DNA from: a virus
IMG/VR virus record: IMGVR_UViG_3300050119_000049
Span: 1 to 64,000 of that record
Strand: one strand, 5' to 3'
Length of the DNA: 64,000 nucleotides
Shown: piece after piece, positions 6,925 through 10,001 of the stretch
How positions within the stretch are numbered: position 1 is the first letter of the stretch
Layout of the letters: every line of letters begins with the position of its first letter
Notes under the pieces: generated by a model
Told to the model about the DNA's origin: nothing
Seen by the model: only the letters and a program-made list of their open reading frames with translations
Database searches by the model: none
Position numbers and translations under genes: made by a program

Positions 6925-7284
6925 TCACGACCAAACTCTCCGACCGAACAACACAGCGTCCCCCATGACGTACGCCAGTGACTCGGCTTTGGTTTTTGGA
7001 TAGCGCGTCAAGTGATAGCAGCGATAGATTTCCGTCGCCACTTCGTTGCGCGGCTTCGCTCGAACAACGCAATCAGCATCGATGAACATGTCTCGCATAC
7101 CGCCGTGATGCCAAACGGCGATACGTTCGAGACGTCCCTGAATCAACGGCTCGACTAAATCCTTGATCATCTTGCGCGTCGGCACAGTCGGCCAATCGAC
7201 GAATTCCTTCAACTGATTGCCCGTCGTCAGAATGACGTAATACTCAGTCGTACCTTTCGGCTTTTCTTGTTCGTAGACTGTCAT
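6925..7284 (-). CDS. Hypothetical protein of 119 aa
   Basis: Internal Met MTVYEQEK chosen because ATG 7284-7282 overlaps the stop of the ThyA-like gene (ATGA). Confidence 0.4.
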   Translation of the reverse strand: MTVYEQEKPKGTTEYYVILTTGNQLKEFVDWPTVPTRKMIKDLVEPLIQGRLERIAVWHHGGMRDMFIDADCVVRAKPRNEVATEIYRCYHLTRYPKTKAESLAYVMGDAVLFGRRVWS

Positions 7285-8051
7285 AATTTTCGATGATCGT
7301 TGATGAAACAGTGAAGCGAGCCTGCCCAGAAAGTAAATATACCCGGCACTACAGTCTTCCAAGCATCGTCGAGCTTGCGCAGCTCGGCTAGCATCCACAA
7401 AAGCAGCCGAGTAGTCAAATATAAATCATCGCGAAAGTGCCGGATGAAATCACACGATCGAATCGGATAGAAAATGTTCAGCCGACTATCGCGCATCATG
7501 AAGTGATAGCCGAGCGAACATGGAATGCGCTCGCCGTGCACTACGCCGGTATCCTCAGGAAAGAATATCGGCAGATACGCTTGCCGCGTCAACGGATCAG
7601 CTTTCAACAAATTGACGACATCCATCAAATCGCCGTAAGCATAACGAATGCCCCAATTTGTTTTAGTCGGGTCACCGGCATTCTTCGGCCAATAGCGTTC
7701 GGCGTAAGTATGGCTGAACACTCCGTCTTTCAAAAAGTTCGAGGCTGAGTTGCCATACGGCCACTCTTTCCACGTTTCACCTGGATTGATCGGTTTGCCA
7801 CTGACTCTCTCTTGCTCAAAGTGATTGTCAGCCCACGGTAAATTCGGTTTGATCTGACGGCGGTAGTAATTCAGCTCTTCGCTCGGTAACTGGACACGAA
7901 AGAATACATCCGACAGCTCGCGCATCTCGGCTTCGGGGCGTTTTGATATGTCGATCGATTGCCACTTAGCCGTATGCACTGCTTTGGCCGTTGCCTTCAT
8001 CTCGTGATGTAAGTTGGTAATGGCCCGATCGAAAAATGTTGGATGAATCAT
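7281..8051 (-). CDS. Thymidylate-synthase (ThyA)-fold pyrimidine-nucleotide C5 methylase/hydroxymethylase homolog. It is divergent and its substrate is unknown.
   Basis: Aligns by eye to the ThyA core: DPLTRQA ~ [32 protein letters not shown] ~ [43 protein letters not shown] ~ GDFVWTGGDTHLYSNH. The catalytic Cys and the RSxD phosphate-binding motif are retained. Confidence 0.7.
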   Translation of the reverse strand: [256 protein letters not shown]

Positions 8052-8217
8052 TGAGCTACTAACTCCGCCCCGATCAGTGAAATCGCCATTATGGCGCGTT
8101 GATCAGCTTGAATCAATATGCGCAGAGTTCGAGCAATGCTCTCGACGACGACGCGATCCGATGGCGGCAACTCACGCACGGCGTTGGTGATTTCCATCAA
8201 AACTTTTTCGTCTTCAG

Positions 8218-8589
8218 TCATCTTAATGCCTCATATAGTGATTGAACGATTCTCACTTTCGGATGACGAATCCATGAACCGACTGGTCGATCCGTGCGGC
8301 CCTCAAGCTGCGTCGAGCTAAGATACACGAACACCGGAATGCCAGTGGCTATCGCCATGCCAACTTCGACCAACGCGCCCTTGAACGGAAAGTCTTCTGG
8401 TTCAGCGTAAAACACCAATCGATCACTATGCATGATTTCATGCGTGATGCGCTTCCACAAATAAGTGAAGTCTAACGTTTGGCCCTCATCAACTTCATCA
8501 ATCCAAGTGGAGATGATGCCATATCCTAAGCTGCGCAAATGCTTCCAGCGTTCGGCGTGCTTGACGCGAGAAGCGACGTAAATTCTCAT
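8218..8589 (-). CDS. Nucleoside 2-deoxyribosyltransferase-like (Rossmann) protein. Low confidence.
   Basis: Pattern IYVAS...W...SD.LVFYAE...GALVEVGMAIATGIPV is reminiscent of the NDT/LOG-like fold. Start chosen at the Met ATGA-coupled to the upstream ORF. Confidence 0.35.
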   Translation of the reverse strand: MRIYVASRVKHAERWKHLRSLGYGIISTWIDEVDEGQTLDFTYLWKRITHEIMHSDRLVFYAEPEDFPFKGALVEVGMAIATGIPVFVYLSSTQLEGRTDRPVGSWIRHPKVRIVQSLYEALR

Positions 8590-8885
8590 ACGCAAAGCTC
8601 CTCTTCGATTCGTTCCTCTTCTTGCGGCGGAGGCCGCAGTTTTTTGAGCAACAATATGGCGCAAGGAAGCGTAAGTTCATTAAACCGAATATCGACTACT
8701 TTGGACCATTGAAAGTGACCGGGCAATAGCGGCTCATTCCAATAGGCTTCGCTTAAAACAATGCCTGTCATTCCGGGAAATATTTCCGAGCTCCAATTAA
8801 TAAATCCCAGATTTCCTGGATCGTACGTCATCACTAAATCGCCGGGCCCGATCATGAAGCGGCTCGATAATCGATGCATGGACAT
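8586..8885 (-). CDS. Hypothetical protein
   Basis: Overlap-coupled ORF. Confidence 0.3.
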   Translation of the reverse strand: MSMHRLSSRFMIGPGDLVMTYDPGNLGFINWSSEIFPGMTGIVLSEAYWNEPLLPGHFQWSKVVDIRFNELTLPCAILLLKKLRPPPQEEERIEEELCV

Positions 8886-9208
8886 TCAGTGCATGAATTA
8901 AAAGTATCGGTTTGCTTCGGGTGCGATGCTTTCGCATGGCCGCATTGACACGGCTCGACGATAGGCTCGGACGATTCGGATTGTCGAGGACCAAATAAAC
9001 GCGACATCAAATCTGAAATTGGATTCTTTTCGAACTTGACAGACATACGAACCAGCTCCGGTCGTTGCTGCATGATTGCTTGCATCGATTGCAATACACA
9101 ATCGACACATATCATGGCATCACTTTTGATGCTCGAGACCATCATTCCAGTAGTATGCTCATCGTTCTCACAGAACCAGCATTCAATCTTCAGATTCGTC
9201 ATCTTCAA
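8852..9208 (-). CDS. Cys-rich protein with a ClpX-type zinc-binding-domain-like N-terminus
   Basis: CWFCENDEHTTGMMVSS...ICVDCV resembles the ClpX ZBD (CSFCGK...ICDECV). A second Cys cluster is CQCGH...CTECPC. Confidence 0.35.
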   Translation of the reverse strand: MKMTNLKIECWFCENDEHTTGMMVSSIKSDAMICVDCVLQSMQAIMQQRPELVRMSVKFEKNPISDLMSRLFGPRQSESSEPIVEPCQCGHAKASHPKQTDTFNSCTECPCIDYRAAS

Positions 9209-10001
9209 CCTCAGATTTCTTCGGCATGTGTTTACGAAAATATCGCGTCAGCTCTTTGCGCATCAAGCCTTGGATCTTATCGGCATACGCTTTGACGCGC
9301 ATCGCTTGGCTGAACTTGATTATACCAACGAGGTATTCAGGGCATAAATATCTCGCTGACCATTTGACGACCCATTTCCACATTGTCGAATCGAGCTTTC
9401 GAATCGACTCAAGTTCAAGAATGACATTATCCGAATGTGATAGCATGACTATCGCGTACATCGGATGCATCGTGATATTGGCGAAATGGCAATTGAGCCG
9501 CAGCATTTTCAAGCCCGTAAAATTAAAGCCGGGCAGCAGCACGTCACGGATCAACACTAAATCGGCCGGAAATTTCTTGAACAGCTCAGTGGTACGATAG
9601 AATACATCGATCGTATAAGTCTTCTTATCGACCAGCGTGATGACTACTGATTGAATGCACGGACCGAACACGCTGGCAATCTTTGAGCGCTTCGCATCGA
9701 TCGCGCCGCCTTTGATGAAATGCGCGTATGTTGTGAAGCCCACTGAACCGTATTTGCCTTGCGCCTTGCGCTTTTCCCACAAGCTGAGAGCCACGTTTCG
9801 CGACTCGTGATGCAAGTAATGCTTTGTCAGCATCGTGAGCTTTGATTTCGTATATCCTGAATCAGACAATTGCAATGAATCATCCAGTGTTGTGAATGAC
9901 AGCGTGCGATTGACGATGATCTTGCGAGCGCCACACCACATGTCCGCGTATTCAATCGACAACTGGTGACAATACCTTAACCATTCGGATTTGAGCGTCA
10001 T
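9183..10001 (-). CDS. Second, more divergent ThyA-fold paralog
   Basis: FGPCIQSVVITLVDKKTYTIDVFYRTTELFKKFPADLVLIRDVLL parallels the ThyA PCH...QFYV...[11 protein letters not shown]...PFNIASYALL core. Acidic C-terminal tail. Confidence 0.5.
   Translation of the reverse strand: MTLKSEWLRYCHQLSIEYADMWCGARKIIVNRTLSFTTLDDSLQLSDSGYTKSKLTMLTKHYLHHESRNVALSLWEKRKAQGKYGSVGFTTYAHFIKGGAIDAKRSKIASVFGPCIQSVVITLVDKKTYTIDVFYRTTELFKKFPADLVLIRDVLLPGFNFTGLKMLRLNCHFANITMHPMYAIVMLSHSDNVILELESIRKLDSTMWKWVVKWSARYLCPEYLVGIIKFSQAMRVKAYADKIQGLMRKELTRYFRKHMPKKSEVEDDESED

Follow-up and report, generated by a model that had tools for sequence, protein, structure and literature searches.

The T4 gp42 module comprises one ThyA-fold enzyme, gp42, together with the gp56 dCTPase, the gp1 dNMP kinase, the cd deaminase and td. 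Xp12/PaMx74-type neighbourhoods, which combine a dCMP methyltransferase with a 5mC-selective deaminase, PRA-PH and PolA, are described with one Pfam-detectable thymidylate synthase (TS) homolog; it carries Asp in place of ThyA Asn177 and lies beside the dCMP-family deaminase, the NTP-PPase of MazG type and PolA (10.1101/2024.12.05.627091; PMC8670742). In metaviromes, Asp177-bearing TS homologs are found together with dCMP-family deaminases, MazG/PRA-PH and PolA specifically on contigs whose cytosine is modified (PMC8670742; 10.1101/2024.12.05.627091). Asp at 177 is the cytosine-specific state of the dUMP/dCMP specificity switch (PMC8670742, PMC13326640), and the Asn177Asp change in ThyA moves its preference to dCMP (PMC8670742; 10.1101/2024.12.05.627091), a rule drawn from correlation and from mutagenesis of a few enzymes. 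In the published code, a hydrophobic residue at the position of ThyA L143 goes with methyl and Asp/Glu with hydroxymethyl products, and D169N is diagnostic of all validated 5hodCMP synthases (PMC13326640).

We analysed a window of 64,000 nucleotides (the whole stretch of viral DNA at hand). Its nucleotide-metabolism operon is a minus-strand chain of ORFs in which neighbours abut or overlap; the genes of interest, with ThyX lying apart, are:

1787..4276, minus strand: family-A DNA polymerase with an N-terminal family-4 UDG domain, the final gene of the conserved core
4854..5402, minus strand: zinc deaminase of the dCMP-deaminase family (PF00383, PHROG 174)
5291..5818, minus strand: o175, a truncated ORF2-type paralog of 175 aa by profile homology
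7281..8051, minus strand: ORF1, ThyA-superfamily enzyme, probably folate-dependent (PHROG 160, hhalign)
8218..8664, minus strand: NDT/Rcl-like protein, possible nucleotide N-glycosidase (PF05014, below cutoff)
9183..10001, minus strand: ORF2, highly divergent ThyA-fold enzyme (fold search)
11543..12196, minus strand: MazG / dimeric-dUTPase-type all-alpha NTP pyrophosphohydrolase (PF08761, PHROG 12184)
12126..12632, minus strand: Tmk-like P-loop dNMP kinase (PHROG 761)
55261..55944, minus strand: ThyX, flavin-dependent thymidylate synthase (PF02511)

The order ORF2, ORF1, dCMP deaminase, UDG-PolA is kept in 57-59 of 60 related loci, the exceptions lying at contig ends; 58 of the 60 place the deaminase after ORF1, 57 place PolA after the deaminase, and a kinase cluster is found in 57 of 61. 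Where o175-bearing loci are long enough, they read kinase, MazG, ORF2-like, ORF1, o175, deaminase, PolA. The cassette is made up of a Tmk-like kinase, a MazG-like NTP-PPase, ORF2, ORF1, an optional o175, the deaminase and a UDG-fused PolA, and it is widespread, being common to hundreds of phages. It also occurs in cultured phages of Pseudomonas, Serratia, Yersinia, Brevundimonas, Gordonia, Mycobacterium and Streptomyces, in which ORF2 is mostly annotated "hypothetical"; the gene order is identical in PMBT14, P744, MW202455, Strzyga, BigChungus, Yakult, NoShow and KimJongPhill. Unlike the T4 gp42 module, the cassette sits in small phages (~42-72 kb) and is linked to UDG-PolA, has two or three ThyA-fold paralogs in place of one, carries a different type of NTP-PPase and has no glucosyltransferase.

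The sequence-only reading of this DNA had proposed two divergent ThyA-fold paralogs, ORF1 and ORF2, and both are present at the coordinates that it gave, on the minus strand, with the motifs that it quoted (DPLTRQ, IPCS and RSCD in ORF1; GPCIQSVV, FYRTTE and FPADL in ORF2). ORF1 matches PHROG 160 'thymidylate synthase' at 2.6e-24 and falls below the gathering threshold of Pfam PF00303 (17.9 bits against a 24.3-bit cutoff), a cutoff passed by some of its homologs. The ORF1 family profile matched the MilA CMP hydroxymethylase at 4e-6, ThyA at ~4e-4 and T4 dCMP hydroxymethylase at 5e-3; CMP and dCMP hydroxymethylases are also the top PDB sequence matches of ORF1. Its alignment with E. coli ThyA by hhalign has 92% probability (E 6.7e-7). 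Mapping with hhalign and MAFFT equates Cys178 with C146, Arg175 with L143, Ser179 with H147, Asp201 with D169, His205 with G173, Asp209 with N177, Trp97 with W83 and Tyr116 with Y94. Among homologs, R175 and C178 are kept in 69/69, R198 (equivalent to the phosphate-binding Arg166), D201 and D209 in 70/70 and H205 in 69-70 of 70, and position 179 is Ser or Thr; the catalytic Cys is therefore retained and PCH replaced by PCS, as had been read by eye. Set against the signature of an Xp12-type dCMP methyltransferase (Asp at 177, a bulky hydrophobic residue at 143 and a folate site for hydride transfer), ORF1 keeps the folate-side W83 and Y94 equivalents in the MAFFT alignment but has Arg at 143. 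This invariant Arg also separates ORF1 from MilA of mildiomycin biosynthesis (PDB 5jnh/5b6d), which has Asp there and acts on a ribonucleotide in a Streptomyces antibiotic pathway, whereas ORF1 lies in a phage DNA-precursor operon. Homologs of ORF1 with E < 1e-5 include no Xanthomonas or PaMx phage.

The ThyA fold of ORF2 is detectable by fold search only. ORF2 has no Pfam, NCBIfam, PHROGs or PDB-sequence profile match and no significant hhalign match to the ORF1 family, and the same holds at the sequence level for the distant ORF2 homologs of MW202455 and P744, annotated as 'pyrimidine hmase synthase'. ORF1 and ORF2 both have the ThyA alpha/beta fold, as had been claimed. Non-significant profile alignments (E 0.026-0.14), combined with the order of secondary-structure elements, gave the same register three times and equate Cys115 with C146, Arg136 with R166, Glu139 with D169, Asp147 with N177 and Phe112 with L143. 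C115, R136, E139 and D147 are each found in 67/67 homologs; the L143 position is Met in 47, Phe in 9 and Leu in 4 of these 67, with Gln also occurring, and that of His147 is Ile or Leu (residue 116). Actinophage versions have Tyr or Phe at the Glu139 position, and when versions from Proteobacteria and Actinobacteria phages (~15% identity) are aligned together, invariance is limited to columns Y62, G113, C115, R136 and D147. Gordonia phage BigChungus gp49 is missed by a narrow ORF2 profile and lines up with the catalytic residues once the broad alignment is used. As a dCMP methyltransferase, ORF2 would fit at 177 and mostly at 143, and it is without recognisable folate-site residues. A Rosetta-stone search of the longer ORF1/ORF2 homologs (389-417 aa) revealed no extra Pfam domains.

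The count of two paralogs fell short, since o175 at 5291-5818 had been missed. It carries the motifs RGDFC97, FYR114SLE117 and YD125, with C97, R114, E117 and D125 kept in 12/12 members of a family of 51 clusters (E <= 1e-3). Its HMM matches ORF2-like proteins at 1e-6 to 3e-10, and in hhalign the o175 family and the broad ORF2 alignment match at 96% (E 4.4e-9, 116 columns). By these profile comparisons, o175 is a third, truncated ORF2-type paralog. It has no PF00303 match, and BLASTP against the long 'dCMP deaminase' of PMBT14 gave no match because the o175 homolog occupies another frame there.

ORF2 and o175 could be non-catalytic partners of ORF1, either regulatory subunits, half-site heterodimer partners or scaffolds of a dNTP complex, so that the cassette would carry out one reaction only. 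The ThyA active site spans the dimer interface, ORF2 has no recognisable folate-binding motif and is always accompanied by ORF1 in the loci examined, and it evolves much faster, Proteobacteria and Actinobacteria phages sharing 15-17% identity in ORF2 against 39-43% in ORF1. However, its family-wide invariant residues are a catalytic-type Cys, Arg and Asp with Gly and Tyr, which is typical of an enzyme and not of a scaffold, and a nucleophilic Cys is needless for pure binding. We therefore consider such a role unlikely.

All three families, ORF1, ORF2 and o175, strictly conserve the Cys nucleophile, the Arg that binds phosphate and an Asp at ThyA Asn177. At 177 the Asp is D209 in ORF1 (70/70) and D147 in ORF2 (67/67), which indicates cytosine, not thymidine, chemistry; the residues of all three ThyA relatives point to enzymes suited to dCMP and not dUMP. 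The resemblance to hydroxymethylases that had been noted holds for ORF1 through its top PDB matches, but the leaning to dUMP does not, given this Asp. Neither ORF1 nor ORF2 has the Asn177 and His147 of a canonical ThyA. Both share Asp177 with dCMP hydroxymethylases and lack the acidic residue at 143, where T4 gp42 has Asp/Glu, ORF1 has Arg175 (69/69) and ORF2 has Met, Phe, Leu or Gln. D169N, found in the 5-hydroxy-dCMP synthases (RB69 gp48, DLP3 gp80, HY126; PDB 9iqc), is absent, the residue being Asp in ORF1 (D201, 70/70) and Glu in ORF2 (E139, 67/67) instead. The signatures fall outside the published codes for products of methyl, hydroxymethyl or hydroxy type, with Arg at L143 in ORF1 and Glu or Tyr at D169 in ORF2. 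The product is not predictable because of this Arg and because ORF2 combines Met/Phe/Leu at L143 with Glu at D169.

The same residues bear on whether ORF2 oxygenates dCMP at C5 with flavin and without folate, as the enzymes of RB69, DLP3 and HY126 do, which would give DNA with 5-hydroxycytosine or a derivative. The missing D169N (Glu139 throughout the 67 homologs, Tyr/Phe in actinophages), an identity to 9iqc of just 11% and the lack of any glycosyltransferase or NDP-sugar gene among the phage ORFs scanned and the related loci make this very unlikely; genes for arabinosyl or glycosyl transfer are likewise absent.

As first described, a dCMP deaminase, a Tmk-like kinase and a MazG-like NTP-PPase do lie in the coupled minus-strand operon. 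The deaminase (PF00383, 1.9e-19; PHROG 174, 1.8e-47) probably starts at an internal Met near 5282, because the longest possible ORF would share 112 nt with o175. The NTP-PPase (PF08761, 27.2 bits, above the 22.9-bit cutoff; PHROG 12184, 3.7e-18) has homologs in the same cassette slot in Clostridium, Gordonia and Mycobacterium phages, and that of GTE2 is annotated 'dCTP pyrophosphatase'. We infer dCTP as its substrate, which makes it a candidate dCTPase supplying dCMP. The polymerase matches PHROG 17 at 2e-118 and PF03167, PF01612 and PF00476 were found on the identical protein. The kinase matches PHROG 761 'thymidylate kinase' at 3.4e-23, and Pfam/NCBIfam dTMP-kinase matches cover the P-loop only and are below cutoff. 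A 5-HMUDK identity was rejected for it, as its phage relatives are the Tmk-like kinases of the same cassette; among the matches listed or tallied (25 of 141 itemised), none is from M6, ViI, PhiW-14 or SP10, the phages of the thymidine hypermodification pathway (PMC5889632). We propose that it phosphorylates modified dCMP.

The NDT-like protein probably starts at the internal Met of MRIYVAS. The NDT-like assignment that had been made is weak (PF05014, 7.7e-5, 23.3 bits against a 28.8-bit cutoff), and the gene, between ORF2 and ORF1, is found in 1 of 60 related loci and is an accessory confined to this phage, not a cassette member. The gene tentatively recalls MilB, an NDT-family hydroxymethyl-CMP N-glycosidase. 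Separately, a PurA-like gene (354 aa) is labelled '2-aminooxy adenylosuccinate synthetase' in PHROGs. The idea of a Z-genome (2-aminoadenine, PurZ) was rejected, as the protein retains the GDEGKG motif of PurA and scores 46 bits on NCBIfam PurZ (cutoff 300), far under that model, and 110 bits on the PurA model; its PDB matches are cellular PurA.

In favour of the initial interpretation, dUMP hydroxymethylation followed by thymidine hypermodification, are the ThyA-fold enzymes beside a dCMP deaminase, NTP-PPase and kinase, as in SPO1-, M6- and ViI-type phages, and ThyX. ThyX is present at 55261-55944 (PF02511, 1.7e-58, full length) and already covers dTMP synthesis, so the ThyA-fold proteins are redundant in that respect, as had been argued. 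Nevertheless, every paralog has Asp, not Asn, at 177, the kinase is not 5-HMUDK-like, and an active-type UDG domain on the polymerase together with the retained ThyX favours normal T. Among ~65 ORFs scanned (>= ~90 aa) in the window, with ~8 kb of the source contig falling outside it, there is no glycosylase-fold (HhH) aGPT-Pplase, PLP, radical-SAM, glycosyltransferase or carbamoyltransferase gene, and none of these kinds is a recurrent neighbour of the cassette across the 60 related loci. We regard the dUMP route as highly improbable. With no modification-tailoring gene in either set, 'hypermodification' is so far unsupported; the likeness to pyrimidine C5-modifying enzymes, closer than that to housekeeping ThyA, is the part of that interpretation that survives, and thymidine and hypermodification are the parts that do not.

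The deaminase raises another explanation, in which one ThyA-fold enzyme converts dCMP to 5-methyl-dCMP and the adjacent deaminase turns 5-methyl-dC nucleotides into dT nucleotides, bypassing dUMP and draining dCTP while virion DNA stays canonical. The deaminase follows ORF1 almost throughout, and ThyX lies within 10 kb of the cassette in only 4 of 60 related loci, so most relatives may be without another nearby phage route to dTMP. As precedents, the mSCD-B5 deaminase turns 5mdCTP into dTTP and 5 of 7 deaminase-linked TS homologs yield 5mdCMP (10.1101/2024.12.05.627091), and the mostly hydrophobic L143 position of ORF2 is the published 'methyl' state. However, C is replaced by 5mC in the DNA of the precedent phages Xp12 and PaMx74, a promiscuous dNMP kinase and a dedicated polymerase favour incorporation, the conversion would be redundant in this phage given ThyX, and a single methylase would be enough, which leaves two or three catalytically conserved paralogs unaccounted for. 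It is, in our judgement, a fairly improbable account.

We lean, by a modest degree, toward the cassette being a pre-replicative dCMP C5-modification module of T4/Xp12 logic. In such a module the NTP-PPase would convert dCTP to dCMP, and ORF1 would use methylene-tetrahydrofolate to place a one-carbon unit on C5 of dCMP. ORF2 and o175, which keep the Cys/Arg/Asp nucleotide-activating core without a recognisable folate site, would bind dCMP or the ORF1 product and perform a second, Cys-dependent reaction at C5/C6. The kinase with host NDK would then form the triphosphate for incorporation by the cassette's own polymerase, while the deaminase would turn part of the (modified) dC nucleotide pool into dU/dT nucleotides and ThyX would supply dTMP. 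A TS homolog is encoded together with ThyX, a deaminase, Tmk and an NTP-PPase in Stenotrophomonas phage AXL3, whose DNA is resistant to all 35 tested enzymes with G/C in their sites (PMC7504290). More tentatively, and with doubt outweighing confidence, the product may be a novel cytosine derivative undescribed in DNA, which ThyA-fold enzymes would assemble step by step on the mononucleotide, with ORF1 installing the one-carbon unit and ORF2/o175 re-activating the ORF1 product via Cys addition at C6 to exchange or rework the C5 substituent.

Our literature search found no paper on the DNA of P744, PMBT14, Serbin, Strzyga or the actinophage genera, no published nucleoside data for any cultured cassette phage and no published characterisation of the cassette; the DNA chemistry of these phages appears to have been examined by nobody. 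Surveys of TS homologs depend on Pfam PF00303 and would see ORF1 only, missing the ORF2 and o175 families with their full Cys/Arg/Asp core; in the Xp12/PaMx74-type neighbourhoods only the Pfam-detectable homolog is described, whereas here the Pfam-invisible ORF2 and o175 are conserved as well. Phage base modifications counter restriction and CRISPR defences and are a source of epigenetic-sequencing enzymes. Because many cultured phages carry the cassette, SEA-PHAGES actinophages among them, the question can be tested directly, and the identity of the product, whichever way it falls, would extend the residue code at the L143 and D169 positions. If a novel cytosine derivative is indeed made, it would represent a new ThyA-fold reaction class in hundreds of phages, including easily grown phages of Gordonia, Mycobacterium, Streptomyces, Pseudomonas and Serratia.

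Both ThyA-like ORFs flagged in the window belong to a chain of minus-strand ORFs that abut or overlap and extend from 12632 down to 1787. Its main members, in transcription order and followed by the separate ThyX gene, are:

12126-12632, minus strand: Tmk-like P-loop kinase, first in transcription order
11543-12196, minus strand: MazG / dimeric-dUTPase-like NTP pyrophosphohydrolase (NTP-PPase), after the kinase
10177-11082, minus strand: SPFH/Band-7 membrane-type protein (PF01145, 3e-22), with small ORFs, between the NTP-PPase and ORF2
9183-10001, minus strand: ORF2, 272 aa, predicted ThyA fold
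8852-9208, minus strand: ClpX-type C4 zinc-finger protein, between ORF2 and the NDT-like gene
8218-8664, minus strand: NDT/Rcl-like protein (PF05014, below threshold), between ORF2 and ORF1
7281-8051, minus strand: ORF1, 256 aa, ThyA-superfamily enzyme; several small ORFs come next
5291-5818, minus strand: o175, 175 aa, truncated ORF2-type paralog, before the deaminase
4854-5402, minus strand: dCMP-family deaminase (maximal ORF)
1787-4276, minus strand: family-A polymerase with an N-terminal family-4 UDG (PF03167), exonuclease and PolA domains
55261-55944, minus strand: ThyX (PF02511, 1.7e-58)

The kinase, NTP-PPase and deaminase that the sequence-only reading had placed in one coupled operon are all found there, and the PF02511 match confirms its ThyX, but its NDT-like protein matches PF05014 only below threshold. 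The maximal deaminase ORF and o175 overlap by 112 nt, and the true start of the deaminase is probably an internal Met near 5282. Between 15.5 and 54.8 kb the plus strand carries a structural module of the myovirus type, in which no DNA-modification enzyme could be recognised. Plus-strand ORFs of this module yielded two further domains, an ADP-ribosyltransferase exoenzyme domain (PF03496, 4.7e-16) and a Mu-F-like head protein domain (PF04233); the two may belong to a single protein, which would then carry a candidate injected toxin domain.

ORF1 matches PHROG 160 'thymidylate synthase' at 2.6e-24 and scores 17.9 bits against Pfam PF00303, under the 24.3 threshold. A profile of 41 homologs detects the CMP hydroxymethylase MilA (4e-6), ThyA (~4e-4) and the T4 dCMP hydroxymethylase (5e-3), and hhalign aligns ORF1 with E. 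coli ThyA at 92% probability (E 6.7e-7). These profile matches place ORF1 in the ThyA superfamily. According to the hhalign and MAFFT alignments, the ORF1 residues W97, Y116, R156, C178, R198-S-C-D201 and H247 are equivalent to ThyA W83, Y94, R126, C146, R166-S-C-D169 and H207, and R175, S179, H205 and D209 stand at ThyA L143, H147, G173 and N177. The homologs from related loci, 70 in all, keep R175 and C178 in 69/69 and D201, H205 and D209 in 70/70. The retention of the folate-side W83 and Y94 equivalents marks ORF1 as a likely one-carbon transferase. A bulky hydrophobic residue at position 143 (E. coli ThyA numbering, as for positions 169 and 177 below) correlates with a methyl product and Asp/Glu with a hydroxymethyl product (PMC13326640); as aligned, the invariant Arg of ORF1 falls outside both classes.

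ORF2 had no hit in Pfam, NCBIfam or a PDB profile search, nor did hhalign match it significantly to the ORF1 family. Its confident AF2 model (pLDDT 89.3, pTM 0.86) finds as its top structural match 9iqc (15.1), a dCMP monooxygenase that depends on flavin and was deposited under the name 'thymidylate synthase', followed by ThyA (11.4), MilA (11.1) and T4 dCH (10.2). Foldseek against viral models retrieves PMBT14 gp48 first (1e-13), and after it thymidylate synthases as well as dCMP hydroxymethylases. The model thus predicts a ThyA fold without detectable sequence similarity, so that the earlier assignment of both ORFs to this fold holds, for ORF1 through profiles and hhalign and for ORF2 through the model and the fold search. 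One register was best in three profile comparisons, each non-significant alone: a core-restricted ORF2 profile with ORF1, and a broad ORF2 profile with ORF1 and with E. coli ThyA. It would equate F112, C115, R136, E139 and D147 of ORF2 with ThyA L143, C146, R166, D169 and N177. This register is consistent with the order of secondary structure in the model, in which the Cys opens strand 116-123, a hairpin strand ends at R136, helix 143-155 follows, and strand 165-178 leads to H179 and Y182.

Ten ORF2-position proteins from cassette phages share 15-56% identity, and only Y62, G113, C115, R136 and D147 are invariant, the pattern expected when an active site is preserved while the rest of the protein changes quickly. 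ORF1 is much better conserved, with 39-60% identity in the same phages. Position 143 is mostly hydrophobic in 67 ORF2 homologs: Met (47), Phe (9), Gln (5), Leu (4) or Arg (2), and position 169 is Glu, or Tyr/Phe in actinophages. The 9iqc match could mean that ORF2 is a flavin-dependent C5-oxygenase; however, D169N, the marker of flavin-dependent 5-hydroxy-dCMP synthases (PMC13326640), is absent, and sugar-transfer genes are lacking.

In the third paralog, o175, the motifs are RGDFC97, FYR114SLE117 and YD125; its family, with proteins of 165-230 aa, comprises 51 clusters at E <= 1e-3. A narrow ORF2 profile matches it weakly (E 7e-4), exactly at the region of these motifs; the broad ORF2-position alignment reaches 96% probability against the o175 family (hhalign, E 4.4e-9, 116 columns); and the o175 HMM matches ORF2-like proteins in five metagenomic loci (8e-6 to 3e-10). 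These profile matches identify o175 as a truncated, ThyA-derived paralog of the ORF2 type. In ORF1, ORF2, o175 and ThyA alike, the Arg and the Asp are spaced 11 residues apart. ORF2 and o175 might instead be non-catalytic partners, since they evolve quickly and ORF2 has no recognisable folate site, but their catalytic residues are invariant. The ThyA fold of ORF1 and ORF2 and the homology of o175 to the ORF2 family are nearly certain.

The comparison of the cassette covered 57 loci that the ORF2 family retrieved from IMG/VR, plus three GenBank phages. The order ORF2, ORF1, deaminase, PolA is constant in 57-59 of the 60 loci, the exceptions being contig ends; from ORF2, ORF1 starts at ~0.8 kb, the deaminase at ~1.7-2.6 kb and PolA at ~2.2-3.5 kb. 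A PolA homolog follows the deaminase in 57/60 related loci, and the kinase cluster is present in 57/61. The same arrangement is seen in eight cultured or assembled phages (Brevundimonas Strzyga, Manatee Spring contig MW202455, Yersinia P744, Pseudomonas PMBT14, Gordonia BigChungus and Yakult, Mycobacterium NoShow, and Streptomyces KimJongPhill), with the gene order helicase or primase, kinase, NTP-PPase, a ~260-350-aa protein, 'thymidylate synthase', deaminase, PolA, Cas4/RecB-type exonuclease and recombinase. The ~260-350-aa protein, at the ORF2 position, is usually annotated 'hypothetical'; in two GenBank entries the ORF2 homolog is named 'pyrimidine hmase synthase', with no publication to back the name. 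In twelve o175-retrieved loci, o175 follows ORF1 and precedes the deaminase on every contig that reaches far enough; in Yakult it is located after PolA. In PMBT14 (NC_048687), the o175 homolog (6989-7537, L073) lies in another frame within the 5' part of gp46 (6999-7958), annotated as a 319-aa 'dCMP deaminase'; this annotation is therefore probably wrong, and the gene model probably a fusion artefact that conceals a gene.

Several genes set this phage apart. The SPFH and ClpX-type zinc-finger genes, embedded in a nucleotide-metabolism operon, were not found in the 60 related loci (tblastn E < 1e-5), and an NDT-like gene occurs in only one of them; the zinc-finger and NDT-like insertions between ORF2 and ORF1 are specific to this phage. 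MilA, a CMP hydroxymethylase, is paired with MilB, an NDT-family hydroxymethyl-CMP N-glycosidase; the NDT-like gene between ORF2 and ORF1 recalls this pairing, and its product might remove an unwanted nucleotide. The PurA-like and TROVE genes are likewise specific to this phage among the compared loci. The PurA-like protein (58832-59896, minus strand), short at 354 aa, was rejected as a Z-genome marker: it keeps the PurA GDEGKG motif and scores 46 bits on NCBIfam PurZ (cutoff 300) and 110 bits on the PurA model, though PHROGs label it PurZ-like; its phage relatives occur in Mycobacterium cluster-C-type, Vibrio and Rhizobium jumbo phages. The 481-aa TROVE/Ro60-like protein, which contains a vWA domain (56821-58266, minus strand; PHROG 850 'RNA-binding protein'), is encoded next to the genes for a DUF3310 protein and ThyX. 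Divergent from the cassette is a 705-aa primase-polymerase with an N-terminal PF09250 domain (12984-15101, plus strand); five o175-containing loci have homologs (39-46% identity) at the same place and in the same divergent orientation.

Position 177 of ThyA sets the substrate, Asn for dUMP and Asp for dCMP, and on metaviromic contigs with modified cytosine, Asp177 homologs are grouped with dCMP-family deaminases, MazG/PRA-PH pyrophosphohydrolases and PolA (PMC8670742; 10.1101/2024.12.05.627091). Because ORF1, ORF2 and o175 all bear Asp at this position, a cytosine nucleotide is the likely substrate. Thymidine hypermodification, one of the options in the sequence-only reading, is contradicted by this Asp and by a kinase that is not 5-HMUDK-like among the matches listed; nor did the ORFs scanned include any aGPT-Pplase, PLP or radical-SAM gene. 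A deaminase as constant neighbour, together with the precedent of mSCD-B5, would also suit a thymidylate bypass, in which dCMP is converted to 5mdCMP and deaminated to dT nucleotides, leaving the DNA unmodified; however, this phage already has ThyX, and several paralogs are present.

Under the favoured reading, ORF1 would act as a one-carbon transferase on a cytosine nucleotide; we infer that ORF2 and o175 might bind dCMP or the ORF1 product for a second, Cys-dependent reaction. The gene set (NTP-PPase, ThyA-fold enzyme(s), dNMP kinase, deaminase and a dedicated polymerase, with a separate ThyX in this phage) follows the same logic as the pre-replicative dCTP replacement of T4 and Xp12, a pathway type already known, and the balance tips slightly towards modified cytosine in virion DNA. 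Stenotrophomonas phage AXL3 has a TS homolog, ThyX, deaminase, Tmk and NTP-PPase, but not the exact cassette of this phage; its DNA withstands all 35 restriction enzymes with G/C in the site that were tested (PMC7504290), which fits the general model. In the literature searched, we found no work that assigns the ORF2 and o175 families to the ThyA-fold enzymes, no cassette with two or three ThyA-fold paralogs, and no DNA composition for any cassette-carrying phage. Since the carriers include cultured phages, the question raised by the cassette is directly testable.
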